Shown here: positions 7,911-46,523 of the stretch, piece after piece | Numbering within the stretch: position 1 is the first letter of the stretch | How the letters are laid out: every line of letters starts with the position of its first letter | Source of the DNA: Heteronotia binoei | Taxonomy: Eukaryota | Direction: 5' to 3' | Assembly (NCBI RefSeq): GCF_032191835.1 | Contig: NC_083226.1 | Span: 72,230,001 to 72,294,000, forward strand | Length of the DNA: 64,000 nt | Notes under the pieces: model-generated | Database searches by the model: none | What the model saw: the letters and a program-made list of their open reading frames with translations, nothing else | What the model was told of the DNA's origin: nothing | Position numbers and translations under genes: made by a program

Positions 7911-9332
7911 GGAAGTTTTCAAAGGAAGATTTCTTGCCTGGCTCTGAGGTGGTTCAGTCCAGTACCATGTGATCTTGCTCATTGCATAGCTTTTCCCTGA
8001 GCCCTAATTCATGATTCAGCTAGAAGAAGCATTGAAATACCATGGTGGAGGACCACACAGACAGTTTCCATTCTAGACCAAAATTTCCACATGAATGGCC
8101 AATTATGAAAATATCCAGTTTTATGAAAGCCCCCACAAAAGCACTGAAAGATCACATAAACCTTTTCTCTGTACAGTTAGCATTGGTCATATGGAAGGTT
8201 CAATTTACACTAGAAATTATCTATGTTATAGAGGAGGGAAGCTAGTGCTGTCCACTGCTATGCTATTTCAGTGTCATCCATAACTACATATCCATCACTA
8301 TATTACAAATAAGGGTTCACTGTTGCTGTCTGGTGCACCAGAAAAGAAATAACTAGAAGAGATATACATCACCAGTTGCTCTAGCAATCCCCAGAAATCT
8401 ATGAGTTTTTAGAGGATTACTATAGCCCTGATGATGCAGGATATCATGCAATTATTTAACCAGAAGTGATCTTGTGGTATCACATGATAGCACACAATGC
8501 TCAGCCCCTTTCCAGAAACAGCCAGAGGCTGCCAGCTGGCAAATCTACTTGCTGGGCAATGAATCCTTGAGAGTAGGCCTCATAACATTCACACACAATT
8601 TTTTTGTTTGATTTTTCAAATTGGTCATATAGCATAGGGAATGCTTAATTCAGAAAGTGCTAGTATGAAACGGATATAACGAGCAAAAGCAGCAGCAATT
8701 TTGCAGAGACTAATCACTAAAATTGCTGAAGTTTTCTGCAGGACTTTCATGTATGTGAACTGCTTGACTGTGTTAAAAGAATATGATACACCACAAAAAA
8801 GGGGGGAGGGGGAATTAGGCTACAGTCTTGATGCTGTAGCACAGGAACTAATCCAGGTGGTGCCAAGAAGAGCAGCCAAGGTAGCAACAAACTGCAAAGG
8901 GGATTTTCTTCAATACATATAAAATGTGCCATCAGGCCCAAGAGAGATTATTACCAGACCTGGAGCTTAGTCCCCTGGCTTTTCAATGTTACTTGAGATT
9001 GACCTCATTTAGTTTCTTCATTGTCTGAAAAGGCTTGTGCACTGAAAGGGAGTTCACATGTTAGGAAAGAAAAACATGTTTTTGAGCTTACTCTACTACC
9101 TGAAAATGTTAGATCTGGTCAAGAAGGGGAGTGTAATGCAATATTTCACTTGGATTCTCACATTAACAGTTTTATTAGTAATGAGTACAACTATTGTATG
9201 TCTGCATTTGAATCAACTACCACATCAGCTACTACAGAATGAAAGATTACCTGTACCAAGTAATGATTTCACAAATAGTGTTCAAGGAAGCTGCTTGCAA
9301 TTTGTGATCAAACTGTAATTTGAATACTGGTT

Positions 9333-9617
9333 GGTAGTAGATTAGGGTACCCTATCATCATCAAGCTGCATTCCAAAGTGACAGCTGCCCCGCCCACACA
9401 TGTGCGCGTACACACAAAAATGAACGTCATATGTTTCTCATGGGGGAGTGATGCAACAGTCCCCGAGGAGGCGGCTAGGGATCTGCCCCCACCAGGAATG
9501 CCTGCTTTTTCCTAAGGGGAAAAGGAGGAGGAGCAACTGGTGTAGCTGGCTTCATATTGTTTGAGGAAAAGCGTGTTTTGCAACACATACGTTATTTAGA
9601 AAAATGTGGAGATGCAA
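9333..9617 (+). repeat. Maverick left terminal inverted repeat (~285 bp)
   Basis: Aligns by eye with the reverse complement of 21040-21323, roughly 85-90% identical. Confidence 0.93.
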
Positions 9618-9901
9618 CAGTTTTCAAAAACAGACACATTGCTTTAGGACCCCCTCAAAGTCAATAGTTTACAGGTGGGAAGTGCAGGCACCAGAAATGT
9701 CGTTGTCCAATATTTCTGAAATGTTGCCGGCCATCCCTGGTTGTCACAGGGCGTGTCCCCTGCAACATTTAAACACACATGAGTGTCGGTGGTGCTTTCC
9801 CATGGAACTCTTTAAAATAGGGGAGACCCCCCCCCCACTCCATGGCATGCATTTGTTGCTTTTGGTTTCCCGGCTCTGTTGAACCATCATTTTATAAAGA
9901 A

Positions 9902-11516
9902 ATGAATGCTGTGGAGGCTGACAGGGTTCTGGCTTTGGAACAGGCTGTTCATGATGATATGAACACAGTGGAGACCGATGGGGGGGAAGCCGATGCTGGT
10001 GAGGAACCTGTTTATGAGGAGATGATGCATCCTTCACCCAAAAGCAATGGCAAGGAGTCTGGACATGATGAGGGAAAAGATGAAGCAGAGGATGAGGAAA
10101 AAGAGGAATGGGCGCAGTGTAATCAGAATTGGAAAGAGGATGTAAGTAGCACAAAGGAAACAAAGATGTTGTTGATGGGGGGCCGGACAGAAAATATTTA
10201 GAATTGTGTTTTTTCTTTTGCAGATGGAGGATGAAGGACTGTATTGGAGACTGATTGATCGAATTCTGGAATTGGCGCATAGTAGAGTGAGAACAAACTG
10301 TTGTAAATTCTGTACTACGATTACATATTGTCAAGAGAGTAGTTGTGTGAAAAATGCGACACACAAGAAGACTGGACAGGATGCGGAAGAGGAGGTGGAG
10401 GAAGAAGAAGAGAAAGAAGAAGAAAGTATAGTGTGTGCCGAATATTACCTAGAGAAGGTAAGTAGTGGGGAAACGTGAGAGGGATCCAGGGTGGTGTGGG
10501 GGACAGAATAAACATAGCTGTTTTTCTCTTGAAGAACAAATATGACGATGTGGAGTGGGAACAGTTTATACAAATTGTGGAAGTTGCACATGAGAAAGTG
10601 AATCCTTCATGTTATGGTTATTGTGAAGAAATAGCATGGTATCAAGAACACAGCTGGGTGAGAAAGAAAATGAAACGCCCACAACCTCCCTGCGTGCGAG
10701 ATTTATATCCGGGTGTAAGTTTTTTTATTTTAAAAGGGGGGGGGATGCGGATGTCTAGAAGGGAAATAGAAAGACTAAGACACTTTTCTTTCCTGACAAG
10801 GTGGGGAAAACTTGCCCGTATTCGGAGGTGGCGGATGTCGTCCCTGTGAAGCCAGAACCAAGTTGCTGCTGGGAATGCATGACCGTATATAACATGATTG
10901 TATATAAAGTTCAACCTGTAAAGAAGGATGATGAGGAAGATTCCCTAGCAGATGCTGAGCACGGTACCGGCAGTGATTCTGGAGCGGACATGGAGGATAC
11001 CTCTGGAGATTCTGGAACAGATACGGTGCCTGAAGCCATGGAAAAGGTGAGGGAACCCCCGACTTATGAAGCGCAAACACATGTGTTTCCAACGGATGCT
11101 GATCCAGCCAAGGATGGAGAAGAAGAAGACAACTGCCCATGCATTGAGGCTTTATTCCCCGATGTAAGTGTAATAAAACTGCACCAACTGTGTGAATGTA
11201 ACAAAGCAATATTTGAACTAAAAATGTGTTTTCTTCTTTGAACACAGGTGTGGGACAGACCCATTGATTTTGCACTACTGGCCAGATGCATTAGCGAGGA
11301 GATAAACCCAGGCTGTTGCTACCACTGTGGACTGGTCACCCTGTTTCAAAAAGAGGGATACGGTGCCCAAAGTGCGTCTGTAGATGTTCCAAAGTTTACA
11401 GTGTTCGAAGTAAGGGGGCAGACCTGTGTAAATTTCTGCAAAGGAAAGCCATGGAGCGTGCTGAGAAGCAGAAACAACTCGGAGAAAAAGATGAGAATCA
11501 GAACGAGTCAGAGTGA
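9902..11516 (+). CDS. Spliced Maverick accessory gene, acidic and Cys-rich, unknown function (at least 5 exons)
   Basis: Exons 9902(or 9842)-10141, 10224-10457, 10535-10714, 10801-11163, 11248-. Introns 10142-10223, 10458-10534, 10715-10800 and 11164-11247 all begin GTAAGT, end in a pyrimidine tract plus AG, and are phase 0, keeping the ORFs in frame. The start codon and 3' end are uncertain. Confidence 0.78.
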
Positions 11517-11718
11517 AGATCCAGTTTTTCTGTATATATGCAGCCTAATAAAAAAAAAAATACCTCCATTGTGGCAAAAGAGAGCAAAGTGTCATGACGC
11601 GCCACGGGGATGTGTTAAAAGGGATTTATTATAATCCGCGGGAGGTTGGTAGTTTTGGGGGTATTGAACTGCTATTTCAGGCAACATCTAAGAGGGGGTA
11701 TAAGGTGAGCAGAAATGA

Positions 11719-12109
11719 ACAGGGAAAACTAGATTTGTCGGTTCGAGCGTTATACACTTAATCATGGGTGACGAATTAGCGCTGCTGCTGGGGACTCCCC
11801 CTAACACACCGTTCAAAAACATTCAACACGCAAGGATATTACCAAAGGGTTTAATTCTCTGTACCTATATACCGATATCATAGAACACCAGCTGGTAGGG
11901 ACACAGCCGTGCCCCTTCTGCGCTGTGTTCCGATAAGAGGGAAAGCTCACGATTTTGTCACAGTCATCTATGATGAGCCCCACTACGTCCCCATCAACAA
12001 ACAGCATATCAAAACGATCTGCATAGAAATAAAGATGGATCAGAATCAACCCGTGTCATTCCGTTACGGTAAGGTCATCGTAAGGTTGCACTTACGACCG
12101 CGGGAAAAA
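11719..12109 (+). pseudogene. Minor capsid (penton-like) protein, C-terminal half only
   Basis: Frameshifted TGKTRF...MGDELALLLG / GFNSLYLYTDIIEHQLVG / PLLRCVPI...YVPINKQHIKTICIEIK...LHLRP, which I recognise as the C-terminal motifs of Polinton minor capsids. No N-terminal half is visible upstream. Confidence 0.8.
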
Positions 12110-12574
12110 ATGGTGATTGTGAAAGATTATGGGGACCCAGCGCTGTTTAGGGGCTATTACCGTTCACTGGCTGATTACGCTCTCCCTCGATTTCATGGTG
12201 CACCCGTTATGTATGGGTCAGGAGTTGGAGGGATTTTTCAGAGGCTTTTCCGAATGGCTGTACCGCTTTTTAAAAAAGGGACAGACATTGTCAAGCCACA
12301 CTTGAAAACTGCAGCTCGCAATATTGCTCAAGATGTTGTGGGCCATGTGACATGTCACGTTATGAATAAACTTGAACCCCAGGAGGGATCGGGCTTTATG
12401 TATCTAAAAAGAAGGGGCGGACTTAAAAGAAAATGGTCTATTACATGTAGGGGGCCCCCAGGACCTGTTAAAAGAAGCTGTGGGGGCCCCAAGAAGCAGA
12501 AGGCCCTGAGGAAGAGGGGAGGAAAGAGGAAGAAGAAAAGGACTCCTCACGGGGGACTCAAAGACGTTTTATAA
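12110..12574 (+). CDS. Basic Maverick core protein (PW/pX-like; name uncertain)
   Basis: MVIVKDYGDP...PVMYGSGVGGIFQRLFRMAVPLFKK...QEGSG and a Lys/Arg-rich tail. Lies between mCP and MCP. Confidence 0.75.
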   Translation: MVIVKDYGDPALFRGYYRSLADYALPRFHGAPVMYGSGVGGIFQRLFRMAVPLFKKGTDIVKPHLKTAARNIAQDVVGHVTCHVMNKLEPQEGSGFMYLKRRGGLKRKWSITCRGPPGPVKRSCGGPKKQKALRKRGGKRKKKRTPHGGLKDVL

Positions 12575-12581
12575 GCGGGCC

Positions 12582-13900
12582 ATGGCATTCATCCACTGCG
12601 GCTCGGAAGAGTGTGTGAAGTCGGAGCTCAATCTGTTCCAAATAGCCCCGACACAAACTTGCATCGAGAAAAGCTTGTATATCAAAGTCCTATCCCTATC
12701 AGCCCTTACAGGATCTCTGCCTCTAGAGTTCTACATAGCTGGAAATGGGGAAGATTACATCAATTTAAACAATATACTCCTCCACGTGAAATGCAAAATT
12801 ACTCGAGAAGATGGCACAGACCTCCCTGCTGATGCTAGAGTGGCACTGGTGAACTACCCTATAGCATCCACATTCAGTCAGCTGGATGTGACCGTTGGAG
12901 ATTGGCTGATCAGCCAGAGCAATAATTGCTACCCCAATAGGGCAATGATTGAAACTCTGCTCAATTACAGCAGGGAAACCCTAGGCACACAATTTTCAGC
13001 AGGTGGTTTTTATAAGGATATGGCTGGCCAGCACAAATCCACCATCCTGACAAACCCCGTCAACAAGGGGTTTGCCAAGAGTGCAGAACTAACGGCTGAG
13101 AGCAGGGTGATAGACCTTTTAGGGCATCTCCACATGGACCTATTTTTTCAAGAAAAACTGCTACTAGAGGGAGTGGATGTGAAAATCAAACTAAACCACA
13201 GCAGGGACACCTTCTGCTTGATGAGCGGTACGGGAGACGGGACACGTTTTAAGCTCCAGTTGGATTCAGTCTATCTCTTTGTGAAAAAAGTGAGGGTGTC
13301 CCCAAGTGTCCGACTGGCCCATGATGAAGCACTGATGACCTCCACAGCAAAATACCCTGTGGACCGTGTCAGCATGGAAGTGTTCAATATCTCAGCAGGA
13401 GCCCGTGTAAGCAACCAAGACAACTTGTTTTTGGGACAGCTTCCCAAAATGGTGGTCATGGCTCTGGTGGACAATGACACTTTCAGCGGCAGCTTCACCA
13501 AAAATCCTTTCCACTTTAAAGATTACAACATTAACTTTGCAGCCCTATATGTGGACGCGGAGCAGATCCCCCCCCAAAACCCTTCCAGCCCGACTTTGCC
13601 ATGGGGAACAACGTGAGAGACTACATGAGTTTGGTGCAAACGGCGGGGAAGAATCTTCAGGATAGACCGCTCCTAATAGATCATGATGAGTATTGGAACG
13701 GGTACACTCTGTTTGCCTTTGACCTCTCTCCCTATCAGGAATGTGCAGACCATTACTCCCTGATAAAAATGGGGAACCTGAGAGCTGAAATACGCTTTGC
13801 AGACGCACTCCCCCAAATGGTGAATTTGATCGTGTACGGGGTGTTTGACAACATCATCGAGATCAACCAAAGCCGCAACGTGCTCTTTGACTATATGTAA
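12582..13900 (+). pseudogene. Major capsid protein (double jelly-roll, Polinton/adintovirus type), one frameshift
   Basis: MAFIHCGSEECVKSELNLFQIAPTQTCIEKS...GHLHMDLFFQEKLLL...NPFHFKDY. Frameshift in the C8 run at 13568-13575, then GYTLFAFDLSP...GNLRAEIRFA...FDNIIEINQSRNVLFDYM*. Confidence 0.92.
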
Positions 13901-13901
13901 C

Positions 13902-14420
13902 ACGGATACTGTCCAGCTAACACGCGTCTTACTAGACAATCCTCACACCCGTAAAAGCTTCTTGAACCTCTTCCCCAGCGATCAGCTACCTGTTGAAAGG
14001 CTGTCCCAGAGGCCCATCTCTTCAGTGATGAAATCCCCACTACCTCCCAGGAGAATACTGGCTGGCGATTTATCTTGTTGACCCCGGGACCTCCGAGTTT
14101 TTTGACTCATTCGGCAACCCACCCTCTACCCCCTCTTTCCGCCTGCCATTATGTACTTTTTAAACAAGAATTCTAACGAGGTGCATTTCCAAAGGAATCG
14201 TCTCCAAGGACAACATCTAACACATGCGGACAGCACTGCCTGTTTTTTCTCCACCACCGCTGCAAAGGTGCCCCCTTTCACAAGATTATGAAGATGAATT
14301 CTCCCACCCCCAAACTGAATGACAGGATGGTCATGAGTTTTGCAAAAAGCACCCTGAAGAATTCAAGGACTTTACAAAACATGTACACTCGCACCCAAAC
14401 CTGTTTCTTGTGGTCCCCCT
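13902..14420 (+). pseudogene. Adenain-like cysteine protease
   Basis: (ACG)DTVQL...PGEYWLAIYL...EFFDSFG...LQG..SNTCGQHCLFFL across frameshifts. The catalytic His position reads TAC (14056-14058); Cys TGC is at 14225-14227. Confidence 0.88.
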
Positions 14421-14524
14421 AATAAAAATCTGTTGGAATATTAAAATGGAGTAAGCGTGTGTCTTTTGTCCATAAAATACTCAGAACCGAAAGATTTGCG
14501 TTAAAAAAAATTATTATTCTATAG

Positions 14525-15485
14525 TCAACCACGCCGTCTTCTTTTTTTTAAGAAGAAATAAGGAGGGGTGAATGTTTTTTGTTTTTTAGAAGAAATTACG
14601 GGTGTGCGCTTTAAAGCCGGAGACTGTGGGCTTTTCAAGTCTTCCAGCATTTTTCTAGCAGCCAGGATGCCCACCACTGAAGAGGGGACATATGAACATA
14701 TGAACATATGAAGCTGCCTTATACTGAATCAGACCTTTGGTCCATTAAAGTCAGTGTTGTCTTCTCAGACTGGCAGCGGCTCTCCAGGGTCTCAAGCTGA
14801 GGTTTTTCACACCTATTTGCCTGGACCCTTTTTTGGAGATGCCAGGGATTGAACCTGGGACCTTCTGCTTCCCAAGCAGATGCTCTACCACTGAGCCACC
14901 GTCCCTCCCCCCACCGTCCCTCCCCACCGTCCCGACGTTGAGTTTGGCCAGAGCCCTCATAAACATGTCCATGCCTTTAGGTGAGGGGGCAGAAGAGGGA
15001 GGGCGAGTCTGAGTAACAGCCTTGACCAAGTCAAGCAGATGGCTTCCAGCAACAGAGGCCCCTCTGTAAAGAAAAGTTCCCCTTTCATCCCAAGAGGCAA
15101 TTTCTTTGTTTTGATCCATTTTCTTTAGCAGCACACGGGCATTGTTCCTGTTTCGATGTGGTAGATTCTCTATCACCTCTTCAAAAACCGTTGCATTTTT
15201 TTTCTCAACGTCGAGTGTTAACTCAGTTTGCGGGAGATACAGATCCAGCTTAGTTTTCTCTTCCTCACCCATTCTGACGTGCGTGAGATATTTCTGAAGA
15301 AGAGAAGCATAGACCTTGGCCTTCTGGTATTCTGATAAATCCCCCCTCTCTAGAACCCTTTTCATCTCCTTGTCTAGACAGTGCACAACGGCGTGCCTGA
15401 TGGGTTCACTCTCAGAGGGCCGCTGAATAGTTAGACAATCTAACTGCTGGCTAGGGACCAGGTACATCTTCTCCGCAAGATCCAT
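14525..15485 (-). pseudogene. Conserved Maverick core ORF (PZ-like; name uncertain), interrupted by a SINE
   Basis: MDLAEKMYLVPSQQL...LDKEMKRVLER...WDERGTFLYRG...SHLLDLVK...LAKLNV, resuming as PSSVVG after the SINE at 14688-14933. Confidence 0.8.
14688..14933 (-). mobile_element. tRNA-derived SINE (Squam3-like) inserted in the Maverick gene
   Basis: Minus strand GGTGGCTCAGTGGTAGAGC (A box) and GGTTCAATCCC (B box), 3' tail (TATGTTCA)n. It splits codons ...LNV|PSS.... Confidence 0.88.
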
Positions 15486-15814
15486 CAGGAGGGTGTTAAA
15501 AAGCTGGTGAGCAAGGGCAGAACAAAAGCCAGCAAGGACCCTATAAAGCCCCCCTGCTGTCTCACCAGTTTCTTCTTCTTTGTAAGGAGAGTCTTAGAGC
15601 TGCTCAGGGTTTTAATCAGGGACCGTTTTTTTCGCAGGACAGTCTTCTGCCGCTGTGACAGGGGGATGACACCTTTTAGCGTGTTTAAAGCTATCTCCCC
15701 GATAGCCTTTATTAAATCGTTTGGAGCAGCGCACAGAATAGCATTCCTTAGATGAGGGGGTGATTTGGAGATGAGTATCAGGAGTCTTCCATTTCTTTTT
15801 AAGCATGCAGACAT
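15485..15814 (-). CDS. Small basic Maverick core protein (PM-like; name uncertain), intact 109 aa
   Basis: MSACLKRNGRLLILISKS...DLIKAIGEIALNTLKGVIPLS...RQQGGFIGSLLAFVLPLLTSFL. Lies directly downstream of the ATPase. Confidence 0.78.
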   Translation of the reverse strand: MSACLKRNGRLLILISKSPPHLRNAILCAAPNDLIKAIGEIALNTLKGVIPLSQRQKTVLRKKRSLIKTLSSSKTLLTKKKKLVRQQGGFIGSLLAFVLPLLTSFLTPS

Positions 15815-15865
15815 GCTTCCTCCATGCCAAGCTGACTCTCCTTAAAAGCCTCGCAGAGTTGAGCG

Positions 15866-16343
15866 TCAGCGCCTTTTAATTCCCCCGACTTTTTTTTTAA
15901 CAACATAGCAGACCAGGAGGTCTGGGGGGAACATCCCTGTATGAAGTCTGTAAGATTCTGGCGTGGTCACGTTTAAATCCACCATCAGGTAGCCGAAGGG
16001 CTTTCCCGTGGCATCTTCATAAGCCTCCATAAAAAAGGCCGCGTTCCCAGGGTACATCTGTCTGGCTAGAGTCGCTATTTGTAATTTATCTCTGGTTTTT
16101 TTTAACTAACACCATGTACTTGGTTTTCAGATTGATGGTTCTGCTGCTCTTCTCCTTGCAGAATAGATTCTGCACGATGTAAATAATACTCAGATTTATG
16201 TGATGAACGTATTTGGTGAAAGCATTTTCGATTTCGCCGCTATCGGAGGCACACGCCATCAGATCATCCACAATGACGAGGTTTATTTTATTAAGAGGTA
16301 GCAATTCATCATCATTAAAATTGGAGGGCAAATCCTCTACAAA
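15866..16343 (-). pseudogene. A32/FtsK-like genome-packaging ATPase, C-terminal part
   Basis: FVEDLP...LVIVDDLM (Walker B)...FTKYVHHINLSIIYIVQNLF...RTINL, frameshift in an A run near 16100, then LARQMYPG...DATGKPFGYLMVDL. The N-terminus (Walker A) is replaced by CR1. Confidence 0.9.
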
Positions 16344-18290
16344 CTAATAATACCCAGTATGGCGTTGGCCTTTTTTATTGCAATCGCACACTGTCTTGAC
16401 ATTATCAGTGAGTTATCTACCACGACCCCAAGATCTCTCTCTTGGTCAGTCTCTGGCAGTTCACACCCCATCAACTTGTATTTGCAGCTGGGATTCTTGG
16501 CCCCAATGTGCATTACTTTGCACTTGGCCACATTGAACATCTTCTGCCACGTTGACGCCCACTCACCCAGCCTCAACAGATCCCTTTGGAGTTCCTCACA
16601 ATCCTCTCTGGTTCTTACCACCCTGAACAATTTAGTGTCATCCGCAAACTTGGCCACTTCACTGCTTACTCTCAACTCCAAATCATTTGTGAACAAGTTA
16701 AAGAGCATGGGTCCCAGTACTGAGCCCTGCGGCACTCCACTGCTTACCGTCCTCCACTGCGAAGACTGCCCATTTATACTCACTCTCTGCTTCCTATTAA
16801 TTAGCCAGTTTTTGATCCACAAGAGGACCTGTCCTTTTACTCCATGACTCTCGAGCTTACTAAGGGGCCTTTGATGAGGAACTTTATCAAAAGCTTTTTG
16901 GAAGTCAAGGTAAACAATATCTATCGGGTCTCCTTTGTCCACATGTTTGTTCACCCCCTCAAAGAAATGTAACAGGTTAGTGAGGCAAGATCTTCCCTTG
17001 CAGAACCCATGCTGAGTCTTCCTCAATAACTCGTGTTCATCAATGTGCCCACTCATTCTGTCCTTGATAATGGTTTCTACCAACTTTCCCGGTATTGAAG
17101 TCAGACTGACTGGCCTGTAGTTACCCGGATCTCCTCTGGAACCCTTTTTAAAGATGGGGGTGACATTTGCTACCTTCCAGTCCTCAGGAACGGAGGCAGA
17201 TATCAATGAAAGATTACATATTTTTGTCAAAAGATCCACAAGTTCATCTTTGAGTTCTTTCAGAACTCTTGGGTGTATGCCATCTGGACCTTGTGACTTA
17301 TTAGTTTTTAATTCGTCCATCAGTTGTAAGACCTCCTCTGTTTTCACCTCAATTTGGCTCAGGTCTTTCAATACCCCTTCCAATAGAAGTGGTTCCGGAG
17401 CAGGCAAACACTTCTCATCTTCCACAGTGAAGACGGAGGCAAAAAATTCATTTAGCTTCTCAGCCATTTCCTTATCCTCCTTCAGTAATCCTTTGACCCC
17501 CAAGCTTCCCCAAGGGTTTTGACTGTATGTACCTTTCCTTTCAGTTTCCTCCTCACATGCCTCCTCATCTCAGTGTATTTACCCCTTTTAAAGTTAAACG
17601 TGGTTGTGGGGTCTTTTTGGACAACTCCCTATTTATACAAACGGTGCAATCAATAACATTATGGTCACTGCTCCCAAGCGGCGCAATCACTTTTACATCT
17701 CTCACCAAGTCTTGGGCATTACTTAGGACCAAATCCAGGATCGCCCCACCCCTGGTAGGTTCTGAGACCATCTGCTCCATAGCACATTCATTGAGAGCAT
17801 CAAGAAACTCAATCTCTTTCTCTCGACCAGAACACATATTGACCCAATCAATCTGCGGGTAGTTAAAATCACCTATTACGACACAGTTTTTACGTTTAGC
17901 CACTATCTTTAAGTTTTCCATCATATTATAATCGTCCTCTCTCTTTTGATTTGGTGGGCGATAACAAACTCCCATAGTTAAATTTCCTTTTGGGCCCTCT
18001 ATTCCAACCCAAAGCATTTCTAAAAGTGAATCTAATTCTCTGACCTCAGTCTTACTGGACCGTATATCCTCTCTGACGTACAGAGCCACCCCACCTCCAA
18101 CCCTTCCCTCCCTATCCTTTCAATATAGCTTATATCCAGGAATCACCGTGTCCCACTGATTCTCCTCATTCCACCAAGTTTCTGAAATTCCCACAATGTC
18201 TATGTTTTCTCCCAACACTAAACATTCCAATTCACCAATTTTACTTTGAACACTTCTAGCATTTGCATACAAACATCTATAATTTCCCTG
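16344..18290 (-). pseudogene. CR1 ORF2 (AP endonuclease + reverse transcriptase)
   Basis: CLYANARS, ISETWW, GDFNYP, SSDHN; RT motifs PGNYRPVSLTS, YLDFQKAFDKV, GVPQGSVLGP, FADDTKL. Stop at ~18120 and a deletion near 17505. Confidence 0.92.
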
Positions 18291-18481
18291 GCGAGCTAGG
18301 CCCACCACCTTCCCCCTGCCACCTCGAGACTCTGGCAGACAGTCCATATTGTTTGTCGCCTTTACAGTGGACAACTCTGGTCTGTTACCCGGTAGAAAAA
18401 TAGCAGCTAACCCTTCATCTCTTTGAGTCGAGTCCTCCCAAACCAGAGACATTTCATCTCCTGTCGGCTTTCCCCCAAGAT

Positions 18482-19381
18482 TTAGTTTAAAAACTGCTTT
18501 GCCACCTTTTTGATTTTAAGCGCCAGCAGCCTGGTTCCATCCGGGGACAAGTGGAGACTGTCTCTTTTGTACAGCTCCCGCTTGTTCCAGAAAGCATCCC
18601 TGTGCCTAACAAACTTAAACCCTTCCTCCTTACACCATCGTCTCATCCACACATTGAGACTTCTAATTTGTGCCTGTCTCTCCTGCCCTGCACGTGGAAC
18701 AGGTAGCACTTCCGAGAAGGCTACCTTGGAGGTCCTGGCCTTAAGTCTCCCGCCTAGCAGCCTAAATTTTTCCTCCAGGACCTCACGACTGCATTTCCCC
18801 ACATCGTTGGTGCCAACATGCACCACGACCACAGGCTCCTCCCCAGCACTGTCTATCAGTCCATCTACTACACGCGTAATGTCCGCTACCTTTGCACCAG
18901 GCAGGCAAGTCACCATACGGTCAGTACGCGGTTTCGCCACCCAGCTGTCTACTTGCCTAAGGATCGAATCACCAACTACCAAAAACCCCCCTCTCCCCCT
19001 GCTCAGGGATGGTTCCTTGGCGCGAAAGGATTCCCGCTCACCAACCGAAGAAGAGGTCCCTTCTGAGGGCGCATTCCCCTTGTCCTCAGCACGGTGCCCT
19101 GTTCCCTCTCGCTCTCTGGCAGCAACGGGGCTGCTACGTTCAGAGCGGGGCTCATCTAATATGCCCCCGAGAGTCTTCCCCAAGTGCCTAACTGACCGTC
19201 TCTACTTCTCCAGGGCAGTCACCTCGGCCTCAAGGGTACGAACTCGTTCCCTGAGGACCAGGAGCTCCTTGCATCGAGCACACACCCAAGACTTCTGTCC
19301 TTTGGGCAGATAGTCATACATGTGACACTCAGTGCAAAACACTGGAAAGCCCCCAACCCCCTGCTGGCATTCTATCTTCAT
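18482..19381 (-). pseudogene. CR1 ORF1 (Cys-rich finger + SGNH/GDSL esterase)
   Basis: FCTECHMY...VCARCKE, one premature stop near 19205, then VVGDSIL, HVGTNDV, DSLHLS. Confidence 0.9.
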
Positions 19382-19919
19382 GATATATATATATTAAAAT
19401 ATACAGTCCTCTTTAAATGCTGTTTGTTTAAGTGGCTCCCCTTCTGGAGGGTCAACTTACCTTACCTCAACTTACCTTATTGGGAACTTACCTTATTTAG
19501 AGAACAAGGAAATCAGGGATCTGGGTTCCTGGCCCTTAGAGAGCCCCTAGGTGAAGAGCCACAGGCCAAGAGCCCTTTAGCTCTCGCCAAAGGCTCGCGC
19601 CTTTGGGAAGGCGCAGCTTAAAATGCAAAGAGGGTGGAGCAGAGGCACTCCTCAGCAATCAGCAGCAATCACTCTTAATCTCTTTCACCCTTAGGCCAGT
19701 CAACCAAACAAAGAGCAGTCAACCAAACAAAGAGCAGTTCCCCAGCTATCACACCTTAGAATTTTAGGCAGCCCCACAAACCTTAGAATGAAGTCCTTAG
19801 AATGAAGTCCTTCAAAACTCAGAAATTCTCAGCAATTTCTCCAGCTGTCTCAGCTATCAGAGCTGCTCTGCTCCTCTCAGACCTCTGTGAGACCTCACTT
19901 TTTAGCAGTTTTAACACTG

Positions 19920-20420
19920 TCCTTTATATTTATAAAATCCAAATTTCGCCTCTTCCTTCTCTTTTCTTCCAAGCTTTCTATACTTTCTTTTCCCACCTTT
20001 TAATTTTGTCCCTTTAAGTTATAAATAGTTCCGGAATGAAAAAATAATCTTCTGTACCTTTTCTTCCTAATATCCAAGTTTCCACTGGTCTTTCAAAGCT
20101 TTAGATGTTTAGCAATGTCCAAGAAGGTTAGGATTCTGACGAGCTTATGTCAAATAAATGACTCTGGGCACTTCTGCAGACGATGACTATGCAACTTCCC
20201 CTGAGACCCCTCAAAGCCTCAAAGAAGTCCCCCTCCGGGGCTCCCTTTAAGCCAAGGTAAATCTCCTTAAAGTTTTCTGTGCATGTCTTGGACTATTCTC
20301 TAACTGAGAAAAGTAAGCAGTAGGCATTAATTTGCCTTCCACTACCCCGAACAGAAGTTCCAGCCTGCTCCCGTTATGAGAGACAGCTTAGCTCGGCATT
20401 TTCCTCCCCCGGAAGTCGCT
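19920..20420 (-). mobile_element. Possible 5' fragment of an L1-like LINE
   Basis: Minus strand begins GACTTCCGGGGGAGGAAAATGCCG at the CR1b break, reminiscent of L1 5' ends. A weak IESLEEKRRKRRNL stretch follows. Not firmly assigned. Confidence 0.3.
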
Positions 20421-20897
20421 ATAATACCCTTTTTTGAGGTGCGGTGACCAGAACTGTACACAGTATTCCAAATGAGTCCGCACCATCGATTTATACAAGG
20501 GGGCATTATCATACTGGCTGCTTTGTTTTCAGTCCCCTTCCTAATAATTCCCAGCGTGGCGTTGGCCTTTTCTATTGCAATCGCACACTGTCTTGACATT
20601 TTTTTCAGTGAGTTATCTACCACAACCCCAAGATCTCTCTCTTGGTCAGTCTCTACAGGTTCACACCCCCATCAACTTGTATTTGTAGCAGGGATTCTTA
20701 GCCCCGATGTGCATTATTTTGCATTTGGCCATCTGCCACATTGTCGCTCGACTCACCCAGCCTCAACAGACCCCTTTGGAGTGCCTCACAATTCTTTCTG
20801 GTTCTCACCACCCTGAACAATTTAGTGTCATCTGCAAACTTGGCCACTTTGCTGCTTACTCCCGACCCCGGATCATTAATGAACAAGTTAAAGAGCA
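20421..20897 (-). mobile_element. Second CR1 RT fragment (truncated at both ends)
   Basis: LFNLFIND, FADDTKLFRVV, SRQCAIAIEKANATLGIIRKG. Confidence 0.88.
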
Positions 20898-21039
20898 CGA
20901 GTTGTATCGACACGCAACCTGATGCAACCTGATGTTAAAGGGACGTGTTACACGTATAAGGTTAGCCGTGCTCAGTTTTAAAGACATCATTTTATCCATT
21001 GGGCATGTCTCCTCTCCAAACTATGGCCGCTTAGAACCA

Positions 21040-21323
21040 TTGCATCTCCACAATTCTCTAAATAACGTCTGTGTTGCAAAACACACTTTCCCCCAAACAA
21101 TATGAAGCCTGCTACACCAGTGGCTGATCCTCCTTTCCCCCTTAGGAAACAGCCGGCATTCCTTGGGGGACGGATCCCTAGCCGCCCCCTCGGTGGACTG
21201 TAGCATCACTCCCCCATAAGGAAACTTACGACGTTCATTTTTGTGTGTGCACGCATGTGTGGGCGGAGCAGCTGTCACTTTGGAATGCGGCTTGATGATG
21301 ATAGGGTACCCTAATCTACTACT
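21040..21323 (-). repeat. Maverick right terminal inverted repeat
   Basis: Reverse complement starts AGTAGTAGATTAGGG, the typical Maverick AGT-repeat terminus, and is followed by the TSD. Confidence 0.93.
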
Positions 21324-24300
21324 CTGGTTCTTTAAACATAAGAAAAACCTAGTTTACCATATAATTACCATCAGAGCTGATCATTTGAATCTAAGCTTCA
21401 TAATCAAAAGCATTCATTCAGAGAGGACTTCCATTTTGTTCTCGTGAGCATATCAAGATAAGGTACTTTGTCTCTACATGGTTTGGCATTCACAAAGCTG
21501 TTCTGCATAGGTAACGCATGAACTCTACCTGACCAGATGGAAAATAGGAGTAGACTTGCTGCTAGAATTTGAAAAAATAGTCACTGGGGTGGATCCAACT
21601 ATCCTTCAAGTAGCTTTACTCCAGCCTGTGGAGCTTTTCTCCAGCTTGTATAGCTTTCCTTCGGTTTAGGTGGCGTTCCCAAAATGGAACAGCTACTTAA
21701 GTTGGAGGAAGGCTTTTTTGATTGGAGGAAAGCTTCATACCTAAGCCAATAGGAAAAGATGGGTTTAAATATCATAATAAATAAAGACACAAACTCTGCT
21801 CAGTTGAGAGGTAGGATAGGAGTAGGAGCTATCCCATTGGGATAAATATTTCACTAATTTTAAATCCTACATTGAAAATTCTGGTGAGCATACCAAACTG
21901 CCATGCTTTTAATACATCTACCTCAGAGTGAAAAGGTTTGTGGCACATTTTTTTTTAAAAAAAGCATTGTAGGTGGTTAGACAAAAAGGGCAGCATTTGG
22001 GTGATGTCAGCTTCATCTATAACAGCAGGAGGGAGAGCTGGGGGGGGAAAGTCCTCTCACGCATATATGTGTTGCTCACTGCATTGTGACAGTGGGTGAT
22101 GTGAAAGACCTTACCCAGGACTCTGGAGAGCTGCAGTCAGAATAGACAATATTGACCTTGATAGACCAATGGTCTGACTTACTATAAGGCAGTTTCATGT
22201 GTTCATGTAAACCTTTCACAGAATTTCATAGTTAAAAGTGCAAAAACAGATCAGTGGTTATATAGCTTCTAGTCTGCAATCTCATGAATCAGTGTGATGT
22301 CAGGCAAAATATGTATGCAACAGGATAAATGCATATTCAGTTTTAAGATGTCAGAAACCAGAATGCAATGCAACTGCTACAACTGATGAAGCAGTAAATG
22401 ATGAAAGTACATAGGATACTGGGGAAATGTTACTTTGTTCAACTGTTTCAAAACTGATGATGGAAGTATTCCTTAGGTTTATTAGATGTGGACAGCCATA
22501 AGTTCAGGATGGACTGTCCATTAGAATTCTAATTGCACATGAAGAACAGGGATCACAGGAAACTGTCATCTCAACATGCTATTAAAGCCACTAGAATGAG
22601 TATGTGAATGTTTGTGTGGGAAGACCCTTACTGTGCGCCCTCTATTATGTCCTCTGTTATGTCCAAGACCTAATGTATATTTTACTGCTGTGGTGTTCTT
22701 GCTTTCCTGAGTTACCCTGGCAATTTGCCAAAGTCCCAGGCAGTTTCTCATATGAGCAATGTGGTATGTAAAATGGCATCTCAAAGCACTGAATCACAAC
22801 ATTGTCCAGTCTCTCTTATACAGTCCAAGACTCCATAAGTAACTGCAAACCTCACCTCCTGAAACTATTCCAAATTTTCCAAATCACTTTCCTGGTGAAG
22901 CATGAATGAATGACATCTACAGATGGCAAAGTGGAGCACAATTGAAGGAGATGATGCTAAATGAAAAAAGATTAAAGGGGGGAAAAATCATGTGATTTCA
23001 CTTATCTCCTCACAAATAATCTGAAAGCTAGTAAGCACACACAAAAAGTATTTCTTCCAATGCTAACAATTCCATTAGAAGGAAGGATCTTACAGGTTCT
23101 TTCATTTCCTTCCTGAATGCAATATAATGCCTATTATCAACTCTGCTTCTCAGTAAACATACCAATGTGTGGCCTCAACATGGGACCCATTCATTGCTTT
23201 GAATGTGCTGTCAATTATTGCTTAAATATTCAAGACTAGCTCGGCATCCCAACAATCAGCAATGGCATTTTTACTCTACTATTACCTTGCATGTAATCTG
23301 GAGGCTTTAAAAACCTGCTGTTCAAAGACTGCTCAAGTCTGTCAAGAGATTCCTCCACTTTACCCTACCATCTTATTTAGACATGTTGGATTATGCAAAG
23401 AGCCTGAGAACTGTCACACATAGCTGGTTAGATTCTTCTGTTTTGGGCACATGTAAAAGGGGAAATTTAAGAATTGGGAAAAAAATTCTTCCACACGTTC
23501 ACCATAATACTTTTCTTGTACTTTAACCTACACATTTTATGAGTGTTATGAGCCACTGTAAATCTCCAATTCAGTGCTGGAAAGGTGAGAGTATAGAAGT
23601 GCACCATCTTGCTCTCTACACATGTTAAAATATGTTGGTATAGGAACCAAGCTCAAGCCCTGTTCAGAAGTTCATTCTAGGTAAGATTGTAAGAATTATG
23701 GTTATTTCACATGACAGCCTCCTGTTCAATTAGTATTTGTTGTGGTGAATGCATAAAGTCTGAAGAGAATTCAACATCCCCAAGTGCTAAAAGATAAAAG
23801 GCTGAAGCTAGTGGAAATTTATTTTAACATTTGAGGAGGAGCCAAGTGGACATTTTGGGTGAACGTTCTCTGGCTGATGGCCCTCCGACTCACCATTTTT
23901 TCTGGGGTTGGCAGAAGAAACAGCAGGGAGTGGACATGATTTCAGATGGCACTCTAGAAACTATAATATTACCCTATGATAATACCATAAAATTTCTAGA
24001 GCATCAGACAATACACTGATATCACATCTGATTTTCTGCCTAGATACAATGTTTGCAAGTAGTTCAACATCACATATGCCCTGCCCCTGAAGTTCCCAGG
24101 GGTGCCTCTGCTTGAGAACTCAATCTGAGTGGATAATACTACCACTGATAGACCATGAGCTTGATTCAATATAAGGCAATTTCAGGTGTTTATGTATAAG
24201 TAATGGAAGAGTGGTGATATCTGCCAGTTCCTTCTACCATCACAAACTTCTGTTCCTGCTCATGGTATTCCTCTGGGTCTCCTGCCCCCCCCCCCAACAC

Positions 24301-24596: not shown

Positions 24597-24861
24597 TGTA
24601 ATGTACTGAGAACCGAGACGGTTTGAAGGCAACATTCTTTATTGGGGGGTACATTACCAGACAAAAAAGCATGCGGGCCGGGCCCCGCTTATATACATCG
24701 CCTGGACAGCCCCCCTGGTTTGACCAGGCCAATCCTGGTCAGTCCAAACTTCCCGCCACAGGTCTTGGTGGGCGGGGCGACTGGCGAGCTACATCCGGGG
24801 ACCCAGGGGTCGCCTTCTGTAGGGCTCGCGATGCGGTACCATCTTAAGTCAATACATAACA
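24597..24861 (-). repeat. Gypsy 3' LTR (265 bp)
   Basis: TGTAATGTAC...CATAACA, a direct repeat of 29015-29376. Polypurine tract on the minus strand at 24862-24872. Confidence 0.93.
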
Positions 24862-24999
24862 CTCCTCCCCCCTTAGCTCAGGACACATAATCCCTCAAGT
24901 AAGCGGGAGCTGTGAGCACCCGGGTCGACCTCCGGGGGGACCCTTGGGGGGGTTGACCCGGCCACCGGCTCTGTCAGGGGCCCAGCTGCTGTGGCCCCC

Positions 25000-27994
25000 A
25001 CGTGGGGGAACCGCCGGCCTATGGCTGATCATGCCCCCCAGTTCTGCCGGGGCTCTGGCCGTCCTCTTCGTTTTGATGTGGCTCCGCTACCCGCTTGGTC
25101 GGAGCGGGCGGTGGGGCCGTTCATTGGGGAGGTGTGGCGGTGGGCTCCTCTCCGCCCTGCATAGCCTCCGGTTCATCTGGCAGGGTGCGGCGGCGGATTT
25201 GGTTAATGTGCCTCCACAAGATTCGGCCCTCCTCCGTGGCTACGTCGTAGTGACGGGACCCTAGGACACGCAGCACCCATTCCACTACCCACTCGGGGCT
25301 GTTCGCGTAGTTCCTCGCGTACACCGGGTCTCCCGAGAAGAATCCCGTGGCCACTTCCCTAATCTCGGGGGACCCGCGGATGTCCGAGGCCCGGTCGGGG
25401 TGCAGCCTATCGAGTCTCATGATAAGCTTGCATCCCATTAGTAATTCCACCGGGCTTACCCCTGTGACAGGGTTGGGGGTTATCCTGTTGTCAAATAGGA
25501 AGGCGGCTAAATGGTGGTCCCAGTCCCCTTGCACTATGTGACCCAAGGCTTCCTTTGTGGTGCACACCATTTGCTCCGCTTGACCGTTAGTGGCTGGGTG
25601 GAATGGGGCGGACCGTATGTGCCGAATTAAGTACCTCTGTAGGAACTCCTGGAATTCCCTGGAGGTAAAGGCGGTCCCGTTGTCTGAGACGATGGTGTCC
25701 GGGATTCCATGCGTGCTCAGGGCCCTGTGCAGCGCCCCGATTGCCGCCGCCGTGGAGGTGGATGCCACCGGAATGACTTCCAGCCACTTGGTGAATGCGT
25801 CCACCAAGATGAAGAATATTTGACCCTGGAAGGGCCCCGCAAAGTCGATGTGAAGCCTCGACCACGGCTTCCTGTTAGTTTCCCAGCGTTGCGCGGGGGT
25901 GCTGGGTGGTTCGGGTTGGGATTCTTGGCACGCTCTACACTTCCGGACCCAACCCTCTATCTCCTCGTCCATCCCCGGCCACCAGACGTAGCTACGTGCT
26001 AATGCCTTCATCGTAACAATTCCTGGATGAGTTTCATGGAGGGACTCTAGCACTTGCCTCTGTAGCAGGGGGAGCACCACCACCCTGCTGCCCCACAGAA
26101 GACACCCCTTGTGGGCAGCTAGTTCCTCCTTCCACATTGTGTATGCCCTGAACTCCTCGCCCAGTTTTCCCACTGGCCAACCCCTTACCAGCCAGTTGAG
26201 AACCCACGCGAGTATCTTGTCTCGCCCCGTGGCTTTCGCTACCTCTGCTGCGTGTAGAGGCCGCTCCGGGAGCGTTTCTATGAGCATCACATGGTGGGCT
26301 GTGGCTGGGTCAGGGTCCAGGGTGAGCAACGGTAAGCGGCTGAGTGTGTCTGCGTGGCCCATAGCCTTGCCCGGCCGGTGGACCAGGGTGTACGTGTAGG
26401 GATTGAGGGACTGATTCCACCGCAGCACACGCTGTGATAAGATCTGTGGCGTTTGGTGGTCTGGGGCTAAGAGGCCCAGGAGGAGTTTGTGATCTGTGGC
26501 TATGGTGAACCGCCTCCCGTACAAGTAGTTATTAAACTTGTGTACCCCAGCCACAATCGCCAGAGCCTCTTTGTCGATCTGGGCATAATTCCGCTCTGCA
26601 GGGGTCAGGGTCCTCGAGTAGTAGGCCACCGGAACCTCCCTCCCGTCCAGGAGTTGGTGCCCCAGGACGGAGCCCACCCCGTACGGCGATGCGTCACAAG
26701 TGAGGACCACTGGTAGGCTCTCATCAAAATGGTGTAGTACGTCATTGGAGATGAGCAGCCCTTTTACTGCCTGAAACGCAGTGTCCTGTGCCTTCCCCCA
26801 GACCTATGGGGCATTTTTGTCTGGGAGTCTGTGGAGAGGTTCCGCTATGGCGGCTTTGTGGGGCAGAAACTAATGATAAAAGTTTAATAACCCCAAGAAA
26901 ATTTGTAGTTCTGCCTTATTTGTGGGGGTGGGGGCTTCCACAATGGCGGTGGCTTTGTCGGGTGTCGGGTGGATCCCTGCTGCGTCCACCGCAAATCCCA
27001 AGAACTCTACCCTGGGCACCCCCAGGGAGCACTTTTCCCGCTTCACTTTCAGACAGGCCTCTTGGAAGCGGCAAAGTACTTCTCGCAGCCGGTTGCTGAA
27101 TTCCTCTGCATCTGGGGTGGCGATCAAAACGTCGTCAAAGAACAGCTGTACCCCGGGGATCCTTTTGAGGAGAGAATCCATCAGACTCTGGAATACCCCC
27201 AGGGCCACGCTCACCCCAAACTGGAACCTCCGCACCTTGAATGCCCCCCGGTGGGTGACTATGGCTTGTGCCTCAGCCGTGGCGGTGTCCATGGGCAGTT
27301 GCTGGTACGCCTGGGCCAAATCCAGTTTCCCAAAGACCTTGGACCCCGCTAACGCAGCCAGAACATGGCTGATGACTGGAACCGGATAGGGATTGTCCTT
27401 AAGTGCCTTGTTTATGGTGCACTTATAATCCGCACATATGCGCACCTCCCCGTTCGGCTTTACCGGGGTCACTATTGGGGTTTCCCACACGGCATAGGAA
27501 ATTGGTTCCAGCACCCCCCGGGCTGTGAGGCGGTCTAGCTCGGCCTCGATTGTGGGCTTCAAGGCAAACAGGACCCGCCTGGCCTTCAACCTTACGGGCC
27601 GCACATGGGGATCGAGGGGCAAGGATATGGGAGGGCCCTTGTAGCAACCCAGGGCCCCATCAAACACCTCCGGGAACTTCTTACACACCTCTTTGAATTC
27701 CCGCACCCCCAGCTGCTGGACCCCCACGATTTTTATTCCCAGTGGCCGGAACCAAGCTAGTCCCAACAGTGTGCTGAGCTGTCGTTTGACCACCAGTAAG
27801 TCAAGTTTGCCCCTAAACCCATTGTATTCCACCCCCACTGTTGCCCACCCCAGGACTTGAACAGGGTTCTTTTGAAAGTCCCGAAGCACGAAGCCTGCCG
27901 GCCACAGTCTGGGCCGGCCATGTGGGCACATCTTCCTCAAAGATTCCTCCGAGATTATAGAAATGGAGGACCTGAGTCCAGTTCCATCAGGCAA
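25000..27994 (-). pseudogene. Gypsy pol (protease, RT, RNase H, integrase)
   Basis: MELDSG; RICADYK, KLDLAQAYQQL, FFDDVL; LTCDASPYG, EALAIV; LHETHPG...CRAC; HIDFAG/VSDNG/NGQAE. Confidence 0.92.
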
Positions 27995-28909
27995 GGCTTG
28001 CCCTGGATCCTGACGGAGACCTTGACCTTGTGGGGCGTCTCATCGGGCAAGTTCATTACCTGGACGCTGGTTGAGGCTGTCGCGTAGTCTCCGATCAGCT
28101 CCTGGTTTGTTGACTGGCAGTGGCGGGGGGGTCTGGCACGGCAGGCCCTCACGATGTGGCCGATCTTGCCGCAGCTCCTGCAGACCATGTTGCGGTAGGG
28201 GCAGTCTCTTCGCTCGTGGGGGTCGCCACAGCTGGCGCACTTGGTCGAGGGTGGTTTCTCAGTTGCTCGGGGTCGCAGTGTCGCTCGTGGGCCCGTCCCT
28301 GCTTGGCGGCGTAGCTGGAGTGCCTCTTCTTCCTCCGGTCCACCGGAGTCCATCTGTCCCTGGTGGACGGCGTCGGCTCTCGTTTTGGGAAAGGTCCTCG
28401 TGGAGCGCTCGAATGCTACGGCCTCGTTGAAGGCGCTCTGGAGGGTGAGCTCTTCCCTCACGAATAGCTTCTGTTGCAGCCTCTCGTCTCTCAGGCCCCA
28501 TGTGAAACGGTCTGCCAGGGTCTCCTCCAGCTGTCCAAAGCTGCAGTTGCCCGCGATTTGGCGGAGAGCTGCCAGGTAGTCGGCGGCCGTCTCTCCCGCT
28601 TCCTGGTCCCTCTGGTGGAAGAGGAATCGGCGGGCCACACGTGAGGGCTGCGGCAAGAAGTGCCCAGTGAGGAGTCTGACTATCTCCTCATAGGACTTTT
28701 CCGTGATCTTCGTGGGGGCCGAGAGACCCTTGGTGATCTTGAACGTGGCCACTCTGCAGACACTCAGGAGAACGTCCCTCTTTAGGCAGTCTTCAGTTAT
28801 TCTGTTGGCTCGCAGGTAGCACTTTACCCGCTCCGTGTAGGTCTCCCCCTTCCGGATTCGCGGGGTTGAACTCTTCGATATGGCCCATTGTTCCGCTCTG
28901 GTTAGCCAT
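27960..28909 (-). pseudogene. Gypsy gag
   Basis: MANQSGTMGHIEEFNP, then after a frameshift YLRANRIT...ARRFLFHQRDQ...LRDERLQQKL; zinc knuckles CASCGDPHERRDC and CRSCGKIGHIVRAC. Confidence 0.88.
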
Positions 28910-28995
28910 GGTGGCTGTGGCGGTGGTAGCCCGACGGGTTGCCTTCGAAGTCTCTGATGGATCCGCGTAGCCCTATTTAAATTTCCCAGGCTAGG

Positions 28996-29013
28996 ATCCC
29001 ATCCTCGTCGCCA
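28996..29013 (-). promoter_or_regulatory. Primer-binding site complementary to tRNA-Ser(GCT)
   Basis: Plus strand ATCCCATCCTCGTCGCCA equals the 3' 18 nt of vertebrate tRNA-Ser(GCT) as I recall it. It lies 1 nt from the LTR. Confidence 0.82.
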
Positions 29014-29014
29014 C

Positions 29015-29376
29015 TGTAATGTACTGGGAACCGAGACGGTTTGAAGGCAACATTCTTTATTGGGGAGTACATTACCAGACAAAAAAGCATGCGGGCCGGG
29101 CCCCGCTTATATACATCTCCCAGACAGCCCCCCTGGTTTGACCAGGCCAATCCTGGTCAGTCCAAACTTCCTGCCACAGGTCTTGGTGGGCAGGGCGACT
29201 GGTGAGCTACATCCGGGGACCCAGGGGTCACCTTCTGTAGGGCTCGCCATGCGGTACTATCTTTTTTTTTTTTAAACATTCATCATTTATTGAGATTAGT
29301 ATATATAACAAATCCATAGTAATAATAAGTATTTAACAATTAAACTTGCGGTACTATCTTAAGTCAATACATAACA
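29015..29376 (-). repeat. Gypsy 5' LTR containing a short LINE-type insertion
   Basis: About 11 substitutions versus the other LTR by eye count, plus an insert at 29264-29346. Confidence 0.92.
29264..29346 (-). mobile_element. Very short polyadenylated retroposed insert (L1-type 3' stub)
   Basis: Minus strand AATAAA plus poly(A), flanked by a 14-bp TSD TGCGGTACTATCTT (29250-29263, 29347-29360). Confidence 0.85.
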
Positions 29377-45798: not shown

Positions 45799-46523
45799 CC
45801 GTGTTACAAAACAATATCAAAATACAAAACAATATCAAAATATAATTACAATACTTTTCATTCACAACATAGTATTACAATGTAAATTTCAGTAACAAAT
45901 TCAGTGACAAATACCGTCCAAAGCACACAGCTTCACTACTGTCCATAAGATGATATCAGGTTCTTTCCAAAATATACAGTCCGACGGTGCAAAACTGGTC
46001 CGTTCTCGTTTCGGATCCTTATGATCCTTCCTCTGGGACCGTCTTATAAATTTTGAATGCAGTAGTCTGATGGTGCCTTATTTCTTTATTATACACTGTT
46101 TTCCAGACTTTCTCTAATTTATTTCATTACTAGAACACTACTGTTCTTTCTCCATCTTTCAGCATTTCATTGCGTTTCCAAAAGATGCTGAAAGATGGAG
46201 AAAGAACAATAGCGTTCTAGTAATGAAATCAATTAGAAAAAGCCTGGAAAACAGTGTATAGTAAAGAAATAAGGCACCATCAGACTACTGCATTCAAAAT
46301 TAATAAGATGGTCCCAGAGGAAGGATCCGAAACAAGAATGGACCAGTTTTGCATCGTCAACTGTATTGTTTGGAAAGAACCTGATATCATCTTATGGACA
46401 GTAGTGAAGTTGTGTGCTTTGGATGGTATTTGTCACTTAATTTGTTACTGAAATTTACATTGTAATACTGTGTTGTGAATGGAAAATATTGTAATTATAT
46501 TTTGATATTGTTTTGTAACACGG
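45799..46523. repeat. ~725-bp imperfect palindrome (probable inverted Penelope pLTR pair)
   Basis: Arms 45799-46165 and ~46183-46523 are reverse complements; loop ~18 nt. Confidence 0.9.

Follow-up and report, generated by a model that had tools for sequence, protein, structure and literature searches.

A five-exon gene at positions 9902-11516 of the window – the whole 64,000-nucleotide stretch of Heteronotia binoei DNA analysed here – belongs to a real family of repeat genes carried by gecko Mavericks, one that appears not to have been described before. We regard the gene, the repeat and the duplication, taken alone, as highly probable parts of the explanation. The whole chain, in which a five-exon Maverick cargo gene acquired four four-cysteine modules by duplication of intron-bearing segments and encodes a predicted zinc-binding, host-facing scaffold, is fairly probable.

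The gene and its host element

The host element is a Maverick/Polinton remnant of 12 kb (9333-21323), flanked by a 6-bp target-site duplication (CTGGTT at 9327-9332 on the plus strand, with the identical hexamer at 21324-21329). Its left terminal inverted repeat (9333-9622, plus strand) starts (G)GTAGT – the left end itself reads GGTAGT – and its right terminal inverted repeat (21035-21323, minus strand) ends ACTACT; the inverted arms pair 9334-9418 with 21238-21322, 9397-9437 with 21221-21261, and 9488-9622 with 21035-21169. AGTAGT//ACTACT is the end motif of vertebrate Mavericks (PMC8097293), and terminal inverted repeats with such ends together with a 6-bp target-site duplication mark the element as a Maverick/Polinton. 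The five-exon gene stands between the left terminal repeat and the integrase, the place of an intron-containing Maverick cargo gene. Of the integrase, an N-terminal remnant of 42 aa is left in the window (11594-11719, plus strand; 90% to the first 42 aa of the sister ORF); the sister ORF matches rve (E 1e-14) and Chromo (E 3e-12), so that window copy and sister domains together give the retroviral-like integrase with chromodomain of a Maverick. Remnants of minor capsid, PW, major capsid (12582-13897) and protease genes follow on the plus strand (11719-14420; tblastn to sister ORFs), the protease with a weak Peptidase_C5 match (E 0.0025), and those of PZ (14576-15593) and ATPase (15869-16343) lie on the minus strand (14576-16343). 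The ORFs stand in the order expected of a vertebrate Maverick; the names minor capsid, PW, major capsid, PZ and ATPase are taken from the gene order in PMC8097293, with no Pfam match for capsid or ATPase, which are named by order alone. A protein-primed DNA polymerase B was not found in the window copy of the Maverick, and one lies downstream of one sister copy (PF03175, E 1e-44). The PZ and ATPase remnants are interrupted by an insertion: two LINE insertions lie inside the Maverick (16337-19700 and 20340-20900), presumably of CR1 type judging by their RT/endonuclease motifs, and one of them cuts the ATPase gene. Elsewhere, the window holds an LTR retrotransposon (24597-29263; 249-nt LTRs, 96% identical, gag-pol ORFs on the minus strand) and a long, near-perfect inverted repeat of hairpin type (45823-46517; arms of 158 and 143 nt, 94-95%).

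All parts of the gene lie on the plus strand, and its four introns (82, 77, 86 and 84 nt) are all GTAAGT..AG and in phase 0. Exon 1 (9902-10141), which corresponds via a sister copy to exon 1 of the RefSeq model, is acidic, with an EEPVYEEM motif (10001-10024), and ends with the first half of module 1 (Cys 10118-10120). Intron 1 (10142-10223) keeps its donor in 22/23 and its acceptor in 23/24 sister copies, and a divergent subfamily has it at the same position. Exon 2 (10224-10457) comprises the second half of module 1 (CCxxC 10299-10313), an acidic linker and the first half of module 2 (Cys 10434-10436). After intron 2 (10458-10534), exon 3 (10535-10714) carries the second half of module 2 (Cys cluster 10610-10624) and the first half of module 3 (Cys 10691-10693). 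Intron 3 (10715-10800) leads to exon 4 (10801-11163), made up of the second half of module 3 (CCxxC 10864-10878), an acidic linker with DSGTDT (11008-11025) and the first half of module 4 (Cys 11140-11142). Intron 4 (11164-11247) precedes exon 5 (11248-11516), with the second half of module 4 (CCxxC 11314-11328) and the C-terminal region. The four peptides quoted for exons 2 to 5 in a preliminary description of this DNA are indeed found there, and the symmetric phase-0 exons that it reported hold for all four introns. In most sister copies exon 5 has 89 codons; relative to these the window copy is shifted in frame near 11411, and its exon-3 cluster is without the second Cys. The window copy of the gene is thus decayed. 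An AATAAA at 11547-11552 is a likely poly(A) signal, standing 25-38 nt after the stop in those sister copies that have the 89-codon exon 5.

Evidence that the gene is spliced comes from several sources. The RefSeq gecko models P0001 and P0002, themselves predictions, break at residues 70, 149, 209 and 326, which are the exon ends of sister copy L059. In RNA run X1, one contig agrees with L059 at every one of 263 nt and leaves out its 78-nt intron 2 exactly; this support is weak, since a single run gave a single such contig, whose shorter arm at the joint is 30 letters long, and other contigs of the run cross introns 1, 3 and 4 unspliced. The same run gave no joint for the window copy. Splice dinucleotides are kept at 175 of 183 covered sites among 24 close copies, which adds little because the copies are 83-94% identical. 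The divergent subfamily of the same genome, with 54-58% amino acid identity in exon 5, shares the codon positions of all four introns, and its intron cores are 52-63% identical compared to 46-50% after shuffling. Between the two, dN/dS is 0.24-0.25 over 162-191 codons at a dS of about 1.7, which is near saturation: by this codon comparison, purifying selection is shown to have acted between element subfamilies. Conservation of cysteines among the 24 close copies was set aside as evidence of selection, control cysteines (C36, C41 and C14 of exon 5) being kept as often.

The cysteine module and the duplicated unit

The module reads C-x7, intron, x21-25-CCxxC; it is 46-50 aa long and spans the intron. 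A Cys stands eight residues before the donor in each of exons 1 to 4, an arrangement with a rough chance of 1e-4. The preliminary description had recognized a Cys module of about 35 aa in exons 2 to 5: the repeat exists, but its boundaries were misplaced – the fourth, upstream Cys was missed and the module extends across the intron. The likeness of exons 2 to 5 is beyond chance, as all six pairs of their first 36 aa have p<=0.042 against 2000 shuffles (exons 2 and 3, z=10.9). With the upstream Cys included, all six pairs reach p<=0.015 in P0001 and p<=0.011 in P0005, although these pairwise tests are partly circular because modules were chosen by their Cys pattern. Modelled as a profile, 11 last modules from other geckos match each of the four modules in P0001 (i-E 0.004 to 6e-29, on this single sequence), as does a profile of 13 first modules, which scores modules 1 and 2 equally (58.6 and 58.0 bits); these tests too are partly circular, the choice of modules having used the Cys pattern. 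The Cys positions are conserved among family copies across geckos: 15 proteins supplied 36 modules, of which 33 retain the upstream Cys (spacing 28-35). The cluster quoted for exon 3, SCYGYC, is peculiar to the window copy: all 23 sister copies have CC. Middle modules can also decay, as in Eublepharis P0029/P0014 and in the three-exon subfamily described below.

The first proposal, that the repeat multiplied by tandem duplication within a gene carried by a virus-like element, is supported, but the exon is not the repeat unit. Every module straddles two exons, and the exons that resemble each other at their starts are not those that do so at their ends. Exons 2 and 3 begin alike, whereas comparison of their ten final residues scores -4, -1 and 4 in three proteins; it is the ends of exons 3 and 4 that are alike (27, 28 and 44 in three proteins). 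Exon 1 holds a first half-module alone and exon 5 a second half-module alone, and in Eublepharis P0037 two adjacent modules are identical at 32 of 46 positions, upstream half included. Since sister exons do not share both ends, the duplicated unit is likely, to judge by protein similarity, to have been an exon end, the intron and the following exon start. An ancestral single module, split by its intron, would have been duplicated as such a segment, giving four modules each cut by a phase-0 intron seven residues after the first Cys. As DNA the repeat units are barely alignable (one of six pairs, p=0.013; intron cores, one of six, p=0.032), and the duplications are therefore old.

Classical duplication of symmetric exons – a whole phase-0 exon copied from intron to intron, with alternative splicing varying the repeat number – appears unlikely. 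The phase is equal on both sides of the repeat, all four introns being phase 0, as this account expects. The domain and exon boundaries, however, do not coincide, since an intron splits each module at C-x7. A copied exon should match its source at both start and end, which exons 2 and 3 do at their starts only and exons 3 and 4 at their ends; nor could exon copying lead from one to two modules in a two-exon gene. Exons can evidently be dropped in frame, for five Gekko kuhli models are without exactly the 60-aa exon 3 and Eublepharis P0038 is without an 80-aa unit, but the shorter models are separate loci and may therefore reflect genomic deletions or annotation choices. Clean loss of a single middle exon was seen in none of the 30 exon-5 loci examined, and RNA run X1 contains no skipping joint, its one joint connecting exons 2 and 3.

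Under the preferred reading, duplication of an intron-centred segment, exon loss can be accommodated as well. The claim that loss of a whole exon preserves the frame is borne out by the annotated relatives that are without exactly one exon-sized unit. Because all introns are in phase 0 and at the same point of the module, loss or skipping of a middle exon would bring a first half together with the second half that follows, so that a complete module remains.

Relatives and element subfamilies

A HMMER search over 1.84 billion representatives returned 19 matches: 13 named gecko proteins (Heteronotia, Gekko kuhli, Paroedura, Eublepharis and Sphaerodactylus), one bacterial protein and five whose source was not looked up. 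The closest named protein is a Heteronotia binoei RefSeq model, 88% identical to exon 3. The bacterial match (P0026, an IPT/TIG repeat protein) was a low-complexity false match and was dropped before modules were counted.

Gecko RefSeq models contain two to four modules. Four are present in P0001 and P0005; three in the Gekko kuhli models that lack exon 3 (P0006, P0008-P0010 and P0012) and in P0035; and two in P0016-P0019 and P0045. P0046 has the layout of the Gekko kuhli models without exon 3, and the unit absent from P0038 lies at the C-x7 junction. Models with fewer modules may represent deletions, skipped exons or annotation choices; what is said here of intron positions and Maverick context in the other geckos is deduced from protein models. 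The RefSeq isoform pair P0040/P0043, considered as a case of module skipping, consists of non-overlapping halves of one locus. A tree of modules across geckos, based on 49 columns, was too weak to bear on horizontal transfer between host species. In Eublepharis P0037 and P0038 the usual last module is absent, and a long C-terminal extension carries the basic motif PxVGKKLKKRRP twice and further Cys clusters. A Pro-rich T-P stretch (RAQTP, TPPxT) directly precedes the last module in P0017-P0019, P0045, P0005 and P0016; S/T-P enrichment across the representatives is at chance level.

Copies of the gene in the Heteronotia genome fall into more than one type. The best 30 exon-5 loci comprise 14 of five-exon type, 11 of three-exon type and five that lack exons 1 and 2; the last were considered as a new subfamily and proved to be 5'-truncated copies. 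The three-exon type was present at all 40 scored places, out of 114 candidates. It has a different exon-1 end, a phase-0 intron of 85-101 nt (retained in each of the 12 loci examined), a degenerate module, and an exon-4 linker and exon 5 of window type (93-94% identical). Its homology to the window gene has sharp edges at 10076 and 10926, which suggests that it arose by recombination between element lineages; the exchange would have taken place within the acidic linkers. In these loci (L026-L042, for example G000:C9:83950214-83950494) the middle module has lost its upstream Cys and has a His in its cluster, SCH[CY]PYC, possibly a swap of ligands. At one further place (L012/L013, G000:C3:70482372-70486590), two gene copies with the same scores and exon translations lie inverted, tail to tail, about 800 nt apart.

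The divergent five-exon subfamily is found in a Maverick derivative (L074:1054 to L079:6357; G000:C1, about 205.7736-205.7869 Mb) whose ends read AGTAGT and whose inverted arms are about 2.6 kb long, and also at L073 and L075-L077. Integrase, capsid and ATPase were not found in these loci or their flanks, which hold only a faint polymerase remnant; the derivative is a non-autonomous element retaining the repeat gene.

Introns in a Maverick gene are not in themselves new. Nematode Mavericks carry the intron-bearing cargo genes wasp and krma between left terminal inverted repeat and integrase, with modular variation that is attributed to recombination between Mavericks (10.1101/2022.07.12.499685), and because the position is the same, an intron-bearing Maverick cargo is an already known kind of gene. 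The gecko gene could accordingly be a captured host gene, with repeats and introns that predate its capture and little use to the element: the nematode cargo is a precedent for both place and introns, and intact vertebrate Mavericks reportedly have core genes without introns (PMC8097293). We nevertheless consider this quite improbable. No named host gene from other vertebrates is among the 19 HMMER matches, every copy in the genome whose flanks were examined lies in a Maverick-type element or a fragment of one, and selection has acted between element subfamilies. The resemblance to the nematode genes is also partial: wasp and krma are protease and kinase genes with ubiquitin-like N-termini, whereas the gecko gene encodes a repeat protein without enzyme domain, in a vertebrate, and a host source for it was not found (no named non-gecko homologue in the HMMER protein search).

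In its ends, 6-bp target-site duplication, gene order and accessory region beside the core module, the gecko element resembles the vertebrate Mavericks of PMC8097293. That study reports no introns in the genes of intact vertebrate elements and lists elements of Gekko and Paroedura in its table as fossils; an ORF corresponding to the repeat gene is not described in its available parts, one supplement included. The available parts of PMC11071296, PMC12220804 and PMC10748475 contain nothing on the gene, and a literature search, with incomplete coverage of subscription papers and Repbase, did not find the family.

The predicted product

Four co-conserved cysteines that include a CxxC pair are the usual pattern of a tetrahedral metal site, and each module is therefore predicted to bind one zinc, to judge from its residues. 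Two AlphaFold models predict a run of short helices per module, at mean pLDDT 41.5 and 54.4 with local best values of 65-79; neither of these weak models gave Cys/metal geometry or a global fold. Foldseek against PDB and viral structures returned nothing at E<=0.001 and VIA a best Z of 2.7, which, with models of such low confidence, says nothing on the novelty of the fold. Scanned against Pfam, P0001, its family (18 members) and the exons gave nothing above cut-off and no zinc-finger match, a PDB sequence search with the exon profile gave a best E of 0.45, and two ESM Atlas queries no usable match. A likeness to the zf-HC2 anti-sigma finger was considered and dropped for want of a Pfam match. 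Viral contigs scanned with A1 gave 601 pattern matches, none of them related, in what is a weak test as the patterns were acidic ones.

That the clusters are not zinc sites but form disulfides, hold an Fe-S cluster or are acylated, the modules being structural spacers, is highly improbable: the absence of a Pfam zinc-finger match, of a PDB sequence match below E 0.45 and of a fold above Z 2.7, and the extra Cys in some modules, would fit it, but the metal-type pattern of the four cysteines, the lack of any signal peptide or transmembrane stretch evident by eye, and the three-exon subfamily, whose loss of the upstream Cys, with a His inside the cluster, would fit ligand swapping, all speak against it.

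Between the putative zinc modules, short motifs recur in acidic linkers that otherwise change fast. Of 12 representatives, 10 have an acidic YxxM-type motif, often twice, and 8 have DSGxx[ST], which the other four lack (shuffle P<=0.024 for each motif); these counts overstate independence because the patterns were picked after seeing alignments and the proteins are related. Exact DSGxxS is found in P0013, P0035, P0018 and P0019; the window copy has the Thr variant DSGTDT, which departs from DSG-hydrophobic-x-S. Phosphorylated YxxM is a PI3K docking site (PMC8005572), and the beta-TrCP degron, DSG-x-x-S, has mimics in a number of viruses, among them rotavirus (NSP1), HIV-1 (Vpu), vaccinia virus (A49) and EBV (LMP1) (PMC4324316). 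The gecko motif resembles these mimics in its acidic setting; it differs in that there is no homology, the likeness is at the level of the motif alone, and its last residue is often Thr.

It is on the YxxM and DSGxx[ST] motifs that a role as a host-facing scaffold is proposed. This least certain step, to which we give a little less than even credence, would have small, zinc-stabilised helical domains carried on acidic disordered linkers with YxxM and DSGxxS/T docking motifs. Such a scaffold would turn host signalling or ubiquitin ligases to the element's advantage, like the early proteins of small DNA viruses. A more ambitious version seems doubtful at best: a spliced early gene of a new type, whose product is a signalling scaffold with tandem YxxM and a beta-TrCP degron. 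Intron-centred duplication and exon skipping, the latter yielding hybrid modules from two halves, would then both set how many zinc modules it has, and the gene would be of enough use for elements with long terminal inverted repeats, non-autonomous after loss of their core genes, to have kept it.

Among early proteins, adenovirus E1A is spliced, encoded at the left end of a linear genome and combines acidic disorder with a Cys4 site, and polyomavirus middle T has tyrosine docking motifs. The gecko gene resembles E1A in its splicing, left-end position, acidic disorder and Cys site, and middle T in its tyrosine motifs, by analogy only: no similarity of sequence or fold was found, and C-x28-35-CC-x2-C is repeated and is not the CxxC-x13-CxxC arrangement. 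The 'Oncoid' genes of adintoviruses, defined by LXCXE/CK2 motifs and usually placed upstream of PolB (PMC8502044), are likewise accessory ORFs in which short linear motifs stand beside paired-Cys motifs, as CCxxC does in every gecko module. Unlike them, the gecko gene is on the integrase side and spliced, and LxCxE is not enriched: loose [LIV]xCx[ED] occurs in 4 of 12 representatives, at chance level (shuffle P 0.22-0.75) and with no shared position. By definition, then, the gecko gene is not an Oncoid.

The genes of vertebrate Mavericks have been described as intronless and their accessory regions are little annotated; surveys based on ORFs would miss a gene made of 180-360-nt exons. The gecko family indicates that a vertebrate Maverick uses host splicing. 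It also offers a natural series of two, three and four modules, with recent and old duplications, in which an intron inside the domain lets the number of repeats vary while frame and domain stay intact. The conserved YxxM and DSG motifs, finally, are testable leads on how a virus-like element may act on host cells.
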